Virus record (IMG/VR): IMGVR_UViG_3300015201_000010 | Coordinates: 1 to 27,109 of that record | Source of the DNA: a virus | Taxonomy: Duplodnaviria > Caudoviricetes | Length of the DNA: 27,109 bases | Direction: 5' to 3' (one strand) | In this document: in pieces, positions 2,761 through 17,316 of the stretch | How positions within the stretch are numbered: the stretch's first letter is position 1 | Layout of the letters: every line of letters starts with the position of its first letter | Made by a program: the position numbers and the translations under genes | The notes under the pieces: generated by a model | The model's database searches: none | Seen by the model: the letters and a program-made list of their open reading frames with translations, nothing else | What the model was told of the DNA's origin: nothing

Positions 2761-3082
2761 ATGTTTTTTGAAATTTTGTTCCTAATTCAACTCTTTTCCA
2801 TTTACTCGGTTCTCCTATTTCTGGCATAGAACATTCACTTTCTCTAACTAAGGTTTTTCTATTTATTGGACAGAAACAGATTTTACAATATTCTTTGTTT
2901 AAATAAAATATTCTAAGTAACTCTTCTTTCCAATTCTTGGGATTATACCAGATAGAGTTTTGGTTACAATCGCTACAAATTTTCCTTCTTTCTTTACACC
3001 AATCTGTCTTACTATTTTTGTAAGCACTTACTCGAGAATTAATTATCATTCTCCAAGTTGATAATTTTAGAAATTTATTCAT
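2744..3082 (-). CDS. small Cys-rich (putative Zn-binding) protein
   Basis: RRKICSDC, YCKICFCP, ECSMP...KW. Overlaps both neighbours. Confidence 0.7.
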   Translation of the reverse strand: MNKFLKLSTWRMIINSRVSAYKNSKTDWCKERRKICSDCNQNSIWYNPKNWKEELLRIFYLNKEYCKICFCPINRKTLVRESECSMPEIGEPSKWKRVELGTKFQKTYDNNR

Positions 3083-4710
3083 TATTTTTGAGTTTGAGCA
3101 GAAAATATTGGTGTTGAGTTATATGTTATTGCCCCTAAAGTTAAAAATGTTCCAGAGATAGAAACTGCATTTTGAAGTGCCAATCTCTCTACTTTAGTTG
3201 GATCAATAATTCCTCTTTTAATCAAATCTGTAAATTCTTGTGTTTGTAAATCTACACCATCTCCATAATATAATGAATTTTGAATATTATGAATATAGTC
3301 TTTTACTTGTTCTTCCATCCCTGCATTTTTAAGAATTTGATAGAATGGTGCTTCCAATGCCTTTACTAAAACTTCAATTCCTTTTCTCTCATCTTCGTTT
3401 CTAGTTTCAATATTAGCCGATTTAAGAGCATTTGATACTCTTAGGTAGGTTACACCTCCACCTGCTACAAAACCTTCCTCTAAACAAGCCTTAACTGCAC
3501 ATAATGCGTCTTCTACTCTATCTGTCTTCTCTCTCTTTTCAACAGTTGAATATCCTCCGACTTTTATCACTGCAACTCCTTTGGTAAGTTTAGAAAGTCT
3601 TTCTTTTACATACTCTACTTCTTTCTTACCTCCTGTGATATTTTTAATCTGTTCTTTAACTATTGAGGCTCTTTCTGAAATCTGTTCTTTCGTTCCTTTT
3701 CCGCCGATTAATACTGATTTATTAGCATCTGATACAACTTTATCAATGTGTCCTAGTCCTTCTAAAGTAACATCATCTAAACTCTCTCCTAAATCTTCAC
3801 TGTATACTTTTGCCCCTATTAATGCAGCAATGTCTCTTAATGTTTCATTTTTTCTTCCCCCAAAACTTGGAGAACGGAGATTCATTAATTTAAATCCCTG
3901 ATAACTGAATTCTAATATCTGTTTTTGTACGTGTCCTGATATGTTATCACAAATAACTAATAAACCTCCTAGTTCTCCCTTATCATTAGTTGATAAACGA
4001 ATTGCCTCATTTAATTGATTTGTATCTTGTAAGTGTCCTTGATAAATTAACACGTTCATATCTTCAAAAGATGCTTCAAACTTTTCTCTGTTATTTATAA
4101 ATTCAGGTGTAGCATAAGGTACATCTAATTCATATCCTTTTGCTACTTCAACAAAAGAGTGTAATTCCTCTGTTTCTTCTATCTTCACTGTTCCTGTTTT
4201 TCCTACTTTTCTGATTGCCTCGACAACTAGATTAGAGATTTCTTTGTCCCCATTAGTTGAAATGTTTGCAATATTTTTTAAAGTTTCAATGCTTGTAGAC
4301 TTATTAGACAGTGTTTTTAAAAACTTCAAAGAAAAATCTAGCCCTAAGTCTAATCCTCTCTTTAAAGATATTGCGTTAACTCCTGTATTTAATACTTCAT
4401 CTGCTTCATTTACAATGGCTTGCGCTACTACTACACTGGTGCTACTACCGTCTCCTGCAACCTCATTTGTTTGATTTGAAACTTGTTTTATTAAGGAAGC
4501 TCCTGCGTCAATAATAGGATCATTAGAGCTTACTTCTTTAGCTACGGATATTCCATCTTTTGTAATCACTGGTAAAAGAATGTCTCTTACGCACATTACA
4601 TTCATTCCTTTTGCCCCTAAAGTTACTTTAACTGCATTTGCAACTAAATCAACTCCTTCTTTTAATAATTTTCTTGCTTCTTGTCCGTAGACTACTCTGT
4701 TTTCTGACAT
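3082..4710 (-). CDS. groEL: chaperonin GroEL (phage-encoded)
   Basis: AVKVTLGAKG, ITKDGISVAKEV, AGDGSSTS, GVAVIKVGG, DRVEDAL, GFVAGGG and GIIDPTKV motifs; 542 aa. Confidence 0.97.
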   Translation of the reverse strand: MSENRVVYGQEARKLLKEGVDLVANAVKVTLGAKGMNVMCVRDILLPVITKDGISVAKEVSSNDPIIDAGASLIKQVSNQTNEVAGDGSSTSVVVAQAIVNEADEVLNTGVNAISLKRGLDLGLDFSLKFLKTLSNKSTSIETLKNIANISTNGDKEISNLVVEAIRKVGKTGTVKIEETEELHSFVEVAKGYELDVPYATPEFINNREKFEASFEDMNVLIYQGHLQDTNQLNEAIRLSTNDKGELGGLLVICDNISGHVQKQILEFSYQGFKLMNLRSPSFGGRKNETLRDIAALIGAKVYSEDLGESLDDVTLEGLGHIDKVVSDANKSVLIGGKGTKEQISERASIVKEQIKNITGGKKEVEYVKERLSKLTKGVAVIKVGGYSTVEKREKTDRVEDALCAVKACLEEGFVAGGGVTYLRVSNALKSANIETRNEDERKGIEVLVKALEAPFYQILKNAGMEEQVKDYIHNIQNSLYYGDGVDLQTQEFTDLIKRGIIDPTKVERLALQNAVSISGTFLTLGAITYNSTPIFSAQTQK

Positions 4711-6090: not shown

Positions 6091-6122
6091 TTTGCACAGT
6101 AAATATAAATAAACTATATTTG
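6091..6122 (+). promoter_or_regulatory. Bacteroidota sigma70-type promoter
   Basis: TTTG (6091-6094), N20, TATATTTG (6115-6122): exact consensus. Confidence 0.8.
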
Positions 6123-15125: not shown

Positions 15126-15854
15126 ATGACAACTCAAAGAAAAATGGCGAAAAAGAAAGTTTCAGATTATGATGAATCAGTAAGTAGTAGGGATTGTGAT
15201 AATTTTAAATTAGAACTACATGCTATGCAGAAACCAATCATAAATTTACATAAAGAAAATGATATGATTATTCTTCTTGCTCCCCCAGGTTCTGGAAAAG
15301 ATTTTATGCAAATTTACAGAGCCATGCAAGGACTCATAAGTAAAGAATTTGAAGAAGTTATATTTATGAGAACGATTGTGGAGGCTACTTCAAGTAAGTT
15401 AGGTTTTTTGCCTGGTGATGAAAATTCGAAGCTAGAACCTTATTTAGAGATATTTTATGAGCAAATGAGATCTATGTTAAAACCTCATGTTTTTGAAAGA
15501 ATTAAAAGTAAAGTGAGGTTTGAATACCCTGGATTTATACGCGGAAAAACATTTGGAGGAAATCATAAAGGAAATGTATGTGTAATTCTAAGTGAAGGAC
15601 AAAACGCAGATTTAAAAGAATTAGTTACAATTGCAACTAGAATGTCAGAAGGGTCTAAACTATTTATTAACTCTGACCCTAATCAATCAGATATTGGAAA
15701 TAGATCGGGAATAATGGATTTTATAAATATTGTAAAACACATAGATGGAGTAGCAGTTCAAGAATTAGATGAGTCATTTCAGATGAGAGGAAGACTAGTT
15801 AGAGAAATTGATAGTTCATATAGAAAATTTTTAAATAAAAAGTTGCAGAATTAA
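15126..15854 (+). CDS. phoH: PhoH-family ATPase
   Basis: APPGSGK, LGFLPGD..SKLEPY, FIRGKTF, SEGQN, TRMSEGSK, DPNQSD. Confidence 0.92.
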   Translation: MTTQRKMAKKKVSDYDESVSSRDCDNFKLELHAMQKPIINLHKENDMIILLAPPGSGKDFMQIYRAMQGLISKEFEEVIFMRTIVEATSSKLGFLPGDENSKLEPYLEIFYEQMRSMLKPHVFERIKSKVRFEYPGFIRGKTFGGNHKGNVCVILSEGQNADLKELVTIATRMSEGSKLFINSDPNQSDIGNRSGIMDFINIVKHIDGVAVQELDESFQMRGRLVREIDSSYRKFLNKKLQN

Positions 15855-15873
15855 AATAAAAGAGTTATATTTG
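15842..15873 (+). promoter_or_regulatory. Bacteroidota sigma70-type promoter driving the non-coding region
   Basis: GTTG (15842-15845), N20, TATATTTG (15866-15873). Confidence 0.75.
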
Positions 15874-15878
15874 TATTG

Positions 15879-16203
15879 TCGGTGCACAAAGTGTGATGGA
15901 CGTGGTAAGAGACTAAGTTCTTTTAAACGCAATACCGAAAGTTGCGCTCTTTACCTAGGGGGTAGAGTATATTTGTATATACTACATCGTTAACTTCCAC
16001 CACTCGAGAGGTAACAAGTAAGAAGAAGTTTTAACATAGTGTGGAGTAAAGATCGCCTTATGACATGTAGTTTTAATTCTTAGAGAGATTTAGTTAAAAA
16101 CACTTTTTGGCTTTTTGGTAATACGTGTGCTGTATCTTGGTAACAGGATTAAACCTTAAAACAACGTGTGATGTGGATGAGTGACCACAAATCTTTCTTT
16201 TTT
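15879..16203 (+). ncRNA. candidate structured non-coding RNA, family not recognised
   Basis: No track ORF, visibly more GC-rich than its flanks, bounded by a promoter and a terminator, with several nested helices and a GUAA-capped hairpin. Confidence 0.7.
16170..16203 (+). terminator. intrinsic terminator closing the ncRNA
   Basis: GATGTGG / CCACAAATC stem followed by TTTCTTTTTT. Confidence 0.55.
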
Positions 16204-16257
16204 AACTTTTTACGCGAAAATAATGAATAAAGAAACAATAAACAGATAATTTTAAAA

Positions 16258-16356
16258 ATGAGACAAGACAAAGTTACTGTTAAGGCTTATTTACAAAATG
16301 AAATAACTAAAGAAGAGTTCGAAAGTAAAAATATTAAGTTACATAAAATTAAATAA
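16258..16356 (+). CDS. 32-aa small ORF (possibly the 3' part of a frameshifted gene starting at 16223)
   Basis: MRQDKVTVKAYLQNEITKEEFESKNIKLHKIK; its stop abuts the next ATG. Confidence 0.45.
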   Translation: MRQDKVTVKAYLQNEITKEEFESKNIKLHKIK

Positions 16357-17316
16357 ATGAGATTAGAAGGAGAGTTCACTTACGAAGTTGATGGAGAAAA
16401 AGTAAAATCAGTAGATGAGTTTTACAAATTAACAAACAATAAAAATTATAATCTAGTTATAGATGGATTGAATATAATAACTACAAGTAAAAGTGAGCCA
16501 TTCTTTTTAGACGAGGTTGTTTTTCATTCTTTTTCTCCGAAAACAAGTAAAAAACAAAATGAAAAGCTAGATTTAATCAGGGATACTATTCTTCAAAATA
16601 AAAGTTTACAGTTAGATCTTAATGACTTTCTTAATATCACTGGAGCAGATTCAGAAGAAGAATTAAAAGATATTCTAAATAAGCTAGAAAATAATAAATC
16701 AATAGCAAAAAAAGAATTAGAAAAAGCAACATATGAACTAAATTTTGACAAGGCTTATGATTTTAAACTTCCAGTGTCAGGAGTTATAAGTCACACAGGA
16801 GGTTCAGTTTTTGAAAAAATACAAGATTCTACTTTAGATGTCTATAACGCCATAACAGGTCATAGTACTAGACATAAAGCAAACCCTTCTACATTTTATG
16901 ATTTATGTGCAGGAATATGTGAAAACAAGAATCTTATTAAATCCTCCAAAGAAAGTGAAGGTATTCAATCTAAAGATTTTCCAGAAGGTTTTGGATGGTA
17001 TAATATGAAAAGAGGTAAAGTAATTGATTATTCAAAAAGTGGCGCGAAAGAAACTGAAAACAAAGTCGATTATTCAGAAATAGATTGGGATTTTATCGAA
17101 CAACTCGCTAAAAGAATGTCTAAAAATAAAGATAAGTATATTGTTAATAACTGGAAAGCACCAACAGATTTAGATAAATTAAAACAAGCTTTATTAAGAC
17201 ATGTATTAGAAGTTCTAAAGGGAAATTATGCAGATGGAGAAGATGAACTAGGACACTTAGAAGCAATAGCTCTTAATGCCCAATTCTTAAATTATCAGAT
17301 AAAAAATATAAAGTAA
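16357..17316 (+). CDS. protein with a C-terminal dATP/dGTP diphosphohydrolase (DUF5664-like) domain
   Basis: GAKETENKVDYSEI...KY..NNWK...ALLRH...GHLEAIALNAQFL. Confidence 0.75.
   Translation: MRLEGEFTYEVDGEKVKSVDEFYKLTNNKNYNLVIDGLNIITTSKSEPFFLDEVVFHSFSPKTSKKQNEKLDLIRDTILQNKSLQLDLNDFLNITGADSEEELKDILNKLENNKSIAKKELEKATYELNFDKAYDFKLPVSGVISHTGGSVFEKIQDSTLDVYNAITGHSTRHKANPSTFYDLCAGICENKNLIKSSKESEGIQSKDFPEGFGWYNMKRGKVIDYSKSGAKETENKVDYSEIDWDFIEQLAKRMSKNKDKYIVNNWKAPTDLDKLKQALLRHVLEVLKGNYADGEDELGHLEAIALNAQFLNYQIKNIK

Follow-up and report, generated by a model that had tools for sequence, protein, structure and literature searches.

The DNA downstream of phoH in the window (the whole stretch analysed here, 27,109 nucleotides long) contains what its sequence and homologues identify as a real, uncatalogued phage non-coding RNA. 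This RNA, designated module C (16082..16198, + strand), is a conserved, free-standing gene of 117 nt with a predicted double pseudoknot. It is found in six full copies, and forms one module within a modular cassette. We are highly confident that the region is a modular slot in which module C is a separate gene. The preliminary description of this DNA had presented the same region as one self-contained, highly structured RNA of 320 nt. Its gap with an uncatalogued structured non-coding RNA and a phage promoter has held up, but the single large RNA has not, and the comparison with homologues largely refutes it.

The region downstream of phoH

The window, a viral fragment of 27 kb with a completeness of 19%, encodes GroEL (a phage-encoded chaperonin of GroEL type, at 3082-4710), RecA/UvsX, homing endonucleases and PhoH. 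By PhoH or RecA, no cultured relative has more than 36% identity among the matches listed. The RNA slot is bounded upstream by phoH (15126..15854, + strand), which encodes 242 amino acids (PF02562, E 2e-35; PHROG 170), and downstream by a gene for 319 amino acids with a dATP/dGTP diphosphohydrolase N-terminal domain (16357..17316, + strand; PF18909, E 8e-14). A 32-aa ORF at 16258-16356 ends immediately 5′ of the start of the latter gene, and shows few changes in the contig of run X3. As had been described, there is no ORF of at least 50 aa between the end of phoH (15854) and 16357, the GC content is raised (0.37 in the putative RNA stretch, compared with 0.285 for the window), and neither ARAGORN nor Rfam gives a tRNA or tmRNA signature.

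A Bacteroidota-type phage promoter, TTGCA-N18-TATATTTG, is located at 15843..15873 (+ strand), with a start predicted near 15879. The motif recurs with an equal 31-nt span at 6092 and 7577 of the window, which sustains the earlier claim that the RNA has its own promoter, and it is also found 5′ of module C in three of the loci described below (L005, L006 and L010). Its -7 box agrees with TAnnTTTG, given as the Flavobacterium/Bacteroides consensus in passages of PMC7641319, and on the basis of the promoter motif and this box we infer a Bacteroidota host for the window. A second promoter at 15942-15975 was considered and rejected, as its span is 34 nt and not 31, and its -7 box is lost in the contig of run X5.

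At the other end, module C is followed by a U-tract and a palindrome made up of a T-run, CGCG and an A-run (16199..16219, + strand), which together are a possible transcript end in the window. The U-tract stands 3′ of P1, the closing stem of module C, both in the window and in L010, where more RNA-like sequence comes after it. Palindromes with a T-run, a CG-rich core and an A-run occur at eight plus-strand sites in the window (7192, 9378, 14132, 16207, 16531, 22679, 23543 and 24290), several of them intergenic, and are present too in L116, L118 and L056. They are possibly processing sites or protein-binding sites.

The strand pairs of all ten helices and pseudoknots named in the preliminary description are present where they had been placed, and GTGTGATG was indeed found at both ends (15891 and 16166); a repeated 8-mer arises in 62% of shuffles of the stretch. 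Folding does not bear out a single highly structured unit: the 336-nt stretch has a z of 0.28, and 56 of 100 shuffles fold equally well. Perfect helices of at least 7 bp number seven, against a shuffled mean of 3.8, and 13 of 200 shuffles are as high. For modules A, B and C taken singly, the folding energy is not significant compared with shuffles (z of -0.9, 0.4 and -1.6 respectively).

The unit that is conserved between homologues is 117 nt long, and the 200 nt upstream of it are absent in all five of the other assembled full copies. Covariation was found, in P1 and P5 of module C, but the 320-nt unit is not kept. The X5 contig retains the promoter, has 407 other letters in place of 15876-15927, and is window-like from 15928 onward. 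In it, the supposed closing helix (15888/16106), helix 15904/15955 and the GCACA pseudoknot are each left without a 5′ strand, and helix 15966/15983 and the outermost C-G of the proposed 8-bp TCCA/TGGA pseudoknot are broken. The motif AAAGTGT occurs within 320 nt 5′ of module C in one of the five other copies (that of Calle, where a tRNA intervenes), and GCACA or GCATA occurs 5′ of module C in three of the five, within the promoter's own TTGCACA or TTGCATA. The hairpin at 16172-16189, described earlier as a terminator, is the invariant internal hairpin P6 of module C, and is taken as part of the module C RNA because it is kept where a tRNA-like gene starts within a few bases.

One 320-nt RNA closed by 15888/16106 and acting with PhoH is therefore hardly credible. 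Its named helices do exist in the sequence, and one relative preserves the order from 15928 onward, but the folding statistic, the five copies of module C that lack the upstream part, the replaced 5′ strand in X5, and the complete Calle_1 record, in which no phoH was found, all speak against it. From the preserved order, A2, B and C are probably co-transcribed.

Segment A1 (15876..15927, + strand) is the variable 5′ segment replaced in the X5 contig, and lies outside any conserved long RNA. Segment A2 (15928..15967, + strand) consists of two hairpins, 15928-15933/15941-15946 and 15949-15956/15960-15967, the second of which is terminator-like by scan. It is kept in the X5 contig, where its sole change among the differences listed (seven of the 12 on the aligned piece) falls in a loop. 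A is weakly similar to what L118 and L119 carry in this slot, and pattern searches with A gave only L118/L130 and L119/L134, plus three chance matches.

Module B (15981..16071, + strand) is a candidate 91-nt RNA with a 7-bp closing stem, defined from the sequence and one close relative. Within it are a stem (15989-15997/16025-16035) and a pseudoknot core of 6 bp (15998-16004/16038-16043), both on the + strand, and the three changes listed for its one close relative, X5, are all outside the core helices. It looks like a second pseudoknotted RNA with a layout similar to that of module C. It remains a candidate because it has no distant homologue (a pattern search with B gave no loci) and no significant likeness to C. 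The idea that A and B are diverged paralogues of C was rejected: neither scores with the covariance model of C, and pairwise comparisons gave p of 0.13-0.71 for B and 0.02-0.14 for A.

Copies and genomic settings of module C

A BLAST search of the region against 50,697 phage records matched only 16090-16199, in four Cellulophaga phage Calle records, at 83.5%. Between the window and Calle_1 (Pervagoviridae), module C is 80% identical. A metagenome pattern scan gave five loci, namely the window's own record, full copies in L005 and L006, and half copies in L007 and L008, and a looser viral pattern scan gave 44, two of them real (L010 and Calle) and 42 chance. A covariance model was built from five copies, which score 122-146 bits with it, and recovered a sixth (L137, in G005) at 132 bits from one of three new records searched. 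The pattern scans had passed over L137, which indicates that exact patterns pick up too few members of the family. The full copies are thus those in the window, Calle_1, L005, L006, L010 and L137. Between any two of them the core is 74-95% identical, and 70 of its 106 columns are invariant; four of the six sequences have more than 90% mutual identity.

Contigs of runs X3, X4 and X7/X8, which come from three studies, match only C, with unlike sequence at or inside its borders; X7/X8 are RNA by guess only, and X1 was left uncounted as it may be the window's own sample. Two exact patterns gave no real copy in GTDB genomes (no match, then one chance match), and a plasmid search gave chance matches only. 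The model found no copy in 50 further viral records, which were mostly gut crAss-like or unrelated and many of them fragments, and a homologue search with the window PhoH alone gave none.

The copies are found in different settings: three begin 1-8 nt behind a promoter (P1 starts 8, 4 and 1 nt after the -7 box in L005, L006 and L010 respectively), two are in tRNA clusters, and that in the window is the last in an array. Calle_1 provides a copy in a cultured phage-host pair, the host being Cellulophaga sp. HaHa_2_95. Here tRNA-Arg(UCU) is followed by module C, which takes up the whole space before the next gene, an unannotated tRNA-like one whose anticodon is UAU. The G005 copy is among tRNAs, ~4 kb from phoH, and is directly 3′ of tRNA-Arg(UCU) and 5′ of a degenerate tRNA-like gene.

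The tRNA-like genes after C in Calle_1 and G005 are tRNA-Ile-like. The first (L001, 4114-4184) is missed by ARAGORN and matches Rfam tRNA with 23 bits (E 0.009); the second (L137, 1617-1693) has an apparent CAU anticodon and an odd D-arm, and is not called by ARAGORN. The tRNA coordinates deposited for Calle_1 are ~52 nt off the ARAGORN calls at this locus, and more structured-looking unannotated gaps between tRNA genes are seen in L001 at 3577-3700, 3101-3189 and 3861-3922. PMC8776804 (passages) reports 20 tRNAs and a tmRNA for Calle and nowhere uses the term 'non-coding'.

L007 and L008 have only the 3′ half of C, directly after tRNA-Thr. The half copy in L007 (1496-1542) is fused to the end of the tRNA-Thr and lies beside a permuted tmRNA (1172-1391). 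In both, the P6 loop is without the PKa complement. Circular permutation was rejected, and the locus is treated as a truncated copy, because what comes after the 3′ half has no more than a weak likeness to the 5′ half (p 0.07-0.57).

The slot after phoH holds four of the six copies, in L005 with a nuclease-like ORF in between. The window and G001 share 95% identity in module C, compared with 26% in their PhoH proteins, which indicates strong selection or a recent transfer of the RNA gene alone. L118, where PhoH is 70% identical, has different candidate RNAs in the slot and no module C; L119 and L120 stop too soon after phoH to judge its presence. Judged by eye, the slot is filled by other stem-closed sequences in L118 and L119, and by C and then other candidates in L006 and L010; one of these candidates reappears in the tRNA cluster of G005.

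Stem-closed, apparently pseudoknotted sequences of this kind are seen at L118 3215-3330 and 3530-3700, L119 3210-3347 and L116 2620-2830, and after C in L006. Rfam gave no match for those of L118 and L119 at E 0.1, and none for those of L006 and L116 at the gathering threshold. One L116 candidate is found again between tRNA-Val and tRNA-Arg in L137 (1310-1426).

Judging from this distribution, module C moves between tRNA clusters and the phoH slot, and the best reading of the adjacency to phoH is an insertion slot that carries a promoter. The earlier proposal of a possibly novel phage RNA, perhaps tied to PhoH, is retained in its first part, since there is no Rfam family; the link to PhoH looks positional. 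The same distribution bears on a role in cis, as a leader or attenuator of the downstream diphosphohydrolase-domain gene. Such a role would suit the U-tract after P1 in the window and L010, and a similar-looking gene (the likeness is by eye) is present farther downstream in L006 and L010. We nevertheless consider it very improbable: two copies have tRNA genes on both sides and no protein gene that they could control, the L118 slot has no module C, and the independence of C from its neighbours argues against a cis-regulator.

Predicted structure of module C

The closing stem P1 pairs 16082..16091 with 16189-16198 (all coordinates in this section are on the + strand). It has 7-13 pairs in all six copies, although the sequences differ, and 6 of 720 permutations match or beat the cognate pairing. 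The first pseudoknot, PKa, pairs 16101..16104 with 16180-16183 in the loop of hairpin P6 (16172..16189), whose five pairs are all invariant in the six copies. PKa is paired in every copy, with one C-G to U-G change. The core pseudoknot is made up of P3 (16117-16119 with 16153-16155), which is paired and invariant in all six, and PKb (16121-16126 with 16164-16169), also paired in all six, with an 8-nt A-rich linker at 16156-16163. One PKb pair occurs as U-G, C-G and U-A, and the run contigs carry wobble-keeping changes. Hairpin P5 (16134..16149), which is the ATCTTG/CAGGAT helix of the preliminary description, is changed on both sides in two of its five pairs. Many unpaired positions of module C are also invariant.

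The 23 modelled pairs can form in 138 of 138 cells, a value that 8 of 500 shuffles reach (relatedness alone can yield such counts), and slid controls give 29-56%. Because the structure was drawn from the same alignment on which it is scored, and because six related sequences are few, we regard these statistics as support and not as proof. RNAalifold returns P1, PKb, P5 and P6 independently, crossing helices being beyond it. Eight run variants are listed within C, of which four keep a pair, three are unpaired and one (16153) breaks a P3 pair when set against the window's base; the loose end of the contig with this variant has a G opposite it, so that a G-U pair would form. It is concluded that P1 and P5 are supported by covariation, and PKb more weakly, and that module C is predicted to be a double pseudoknot (PKa and P3/PKb).

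An extension of PKa beyond 4-5 bp is seen only in L006, where it has 7 bp. Processing of C to an 87-nt tRNA-like RNA (16101-16187), with PKa as the acceptor stem and a free ACCA, would make it a tRNA mimic, which we think improbable. ACCA is found directly 3′ of the PKa 3′ strand in all six copies, the L006 stem is a perfect 7 bp, and the cropped 87-mer folds with ACCA unpaired; T4 RNA D and T5 RNA I likewise end in or beside CCA. However, C has no T-loop and no tRNA call, and the extended stem is unsupported across copies (120 of 720 permutations). The CCA is also within the invariant P6, the covarying P1 is outside the 87-mer, and the idea was formed post hoc.

Comparison with known RNAs and possible functions

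Rfam 15 gave no family at the gathering threshold in the window, the best local matches having E of 2.2-8.7, in keeping with the novelty proposed for the RNA. A match of FopS to the stretch (E 2.6, 15 bits against a threshold of 56) is at chance level and was rejected. The literature gave no description of module C; this covers part of the supplements of PMC10690425, with more than ten thousand candidate viral RNAs, which may list it.

The closest parallels in size, phage origin and tRNA niche are T4 RNA C (rnaC, 139 nt) and RNA D (rnaD, 119 nt), and T5 RNA I, III, IV and 2H (passages of PMC9697503 and PMC12685909). The Calle_1 and G005 copies are inside a phage tRNA cluster, and the window's own copy is not. 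Module C differs from the T4 and T5 RNAs in lacking a T-loop, in its two predicted pseudoknots, and in occurring also away from tRNAs under its own promoter; it has no cloverleaf, and is not called as a tRNA or tmRNA by ARAGORN or Rfam. The best score of the C model on the T4 and T5 tRNA regions was 12.3 bits (E 0.7), and pairwise comparisons with ten annotated T4/T5 RNAs gave nothing significant.

No known ribozyme core was found in the stretch. The hatchet ribozyme (RF02678) has a superficially similar motif order, GGC ... GUGC ... UUAAAAC, which is visible in the Rfam consensus. According to passages of PMC6561176 (background in PMC4604424), its conserved residues are C20-A22, U28-G31, G63-G66 and A73-A75, and C20, G29-G30 and A65-G66 are without a counterpart in C. 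At the hatchet-invariant sites C reads AAAAA, its GGC is preceded by a run rich in pyrimidines, and its (G/A)UGC is followed by UG or CUG. This assignment was rejected, there being no RF02678 match at E 10. As a control, seven of 14 pattern loci tested (14 of the 52 given) passed RF02678 at 80-102 bits, above the Rfam threshold; these hatchet ribozymes are seen in many viral contigs of ~100 kb (L064-L115).

For theta ribozymes, whose hosts include Bacteroidota, a distance of ±5 nt from the 3′ end of a tRNA is used (passages of PMC10879173). Module C is similar in being a phage RNA that can begin at a tRNA 3′ end, but most of its copies are not beside a tRNA: two of six start within 5 nt of one. 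It differs from theta and HDV ribozymes in that its covarying first helix, P1, pairs with the very last bases of C. An HDV-like P1-P2-P3-P1.1-P4 layout with a catalytic C in J4/2 was found in none of the six copies, using a descriptor of our own without a positive control.

It is doubtful, but a chance worth taking seriously, that C represents a new class of self-cleaving ribozyme, which would cleave at its own 5′ side and so release the tRNA-Arg upstream with a free 3′ end, in a theta-like manner. P1 begins 1-2 nt past the predicted end of tRNA-Arg in both cluster copies, within the theta range (PMC10879173, same passages), and the half copy in L007/L008 likewise begins at a tRNA end. The size of C, its two pseudoknots and its many invariant unpaired bases would also suit a catalytic core. 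On the other hand, four of six copies have no adjacent tRNA and three begin at a promoter, spacers of 2-9 nt are common in the tRNA cluster concerned, and neither the HDV-like layout nor the hatchet invariants are present.

We tentatively prefer a different function, argued from analogy, and consider that it may well be wrong: that C serves as a stable decoy acting in trans on a host protein, probably in counter-defence. The slot after phoH would place one phage promoter ahead of separable RNA modules, from which C would be released as a stable double-pseudoknot RNA of 117 nt. Copies in clusters would be matured by the cuts that mature the flanking tRNAs, and those at promoters would be near-primary transcripts. 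The RNA would fold compactly, with A-rich strands lying in the grooves of the pseudoknots, and would act in trans as a decoy that binds a protein of the host, for which a defence nuclease that targets RNA is the likeliest candidate. We infer the transcription, processing, compact fold and protein partner of C from several features. The lack of a fixed upstream or downstream neighbour points to action in trans; a position at a promoter start or in a tRNA operon suggests that C would be abundant; and the invariant unpaired bases suggest a binding surface or an active site.

Phage pseudoknot RNA mimics, such as pseudo-ToxI of phage PhiTE, block ToxN (passages of PMC3475682). Like the proposed decoy, pseudo-ToxI and ToxI/CptI are pseudoknot RNAs that act in trans on a host protein, and in CptI (passages of PMC5086642) a loop 1 of 1 nt and an A-rich loop resemble the core of C. 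The core of C is predicted to be an H-type pseudoknot with an A-rich loop (P3/PKb and the 8-nt linker), paired in six of six copies. Type III antitoxins differ in being tandem short repeats (36 nt in ToxI) copied from a host locus (PMC5086642, in the same passages), whereas C consists of one unit of 117 nt, closed by a stem. C is not a tandem repeat, with only 7-13 nt repeats within the stretch, and the known antitoxin RNAs in Rfam show no likeness to it. The tRNA-rich regions of T5 have counter-defence functions, and few known anti-defence proteins were found there (passages of PMC11555353). Both pseudo-ToxI and the T5 regions are precedents for a decoy by analogy only. Counter-defence genes are usually variable. 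The strong conservation of C fits a housekeeping target or a catalytic core equally well.

A ligand other than a protein was also considered, with C as a free aptamer that sequesters a small nucleotide signal, either ppGpp or a second messenger of immunity. This would be consistent with a riboswitch-like pseudoknot core and A-rich linker without a fixed expression platform, and with the position at a promoter start in three of six copies. It is distinctly improbable, as C has no likeness to any Rfam riboswitch and its neighbours, of which phoH is not a constant one, give no clue to a ligand. More boldly, C could be the founding member of a new double-pseudoknot class, either a tRNA-maturing ribozyme or an immune-signal sponge, movable among Bacteroidota phages and with A2 and B as further exchangeable effectors; we give this proposal some credence, though limited.

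What the small stable RNAs of phage tRNA regions do is a question that dates back to the annotation of T4 RNA C and D and T5 RNA I-IV. Module C is a short, strongly conserved and uncatalogued example, and its copy in the cultured phage Calle_1 makes it experimentally accessible. It also shows RNAs of this kind leaving tRNA clusters for a promoter-driven slot, which is filled by different RNA-like sequences in different relatives. This is the pattern expected of exchangeable effectors rather than of spacers.
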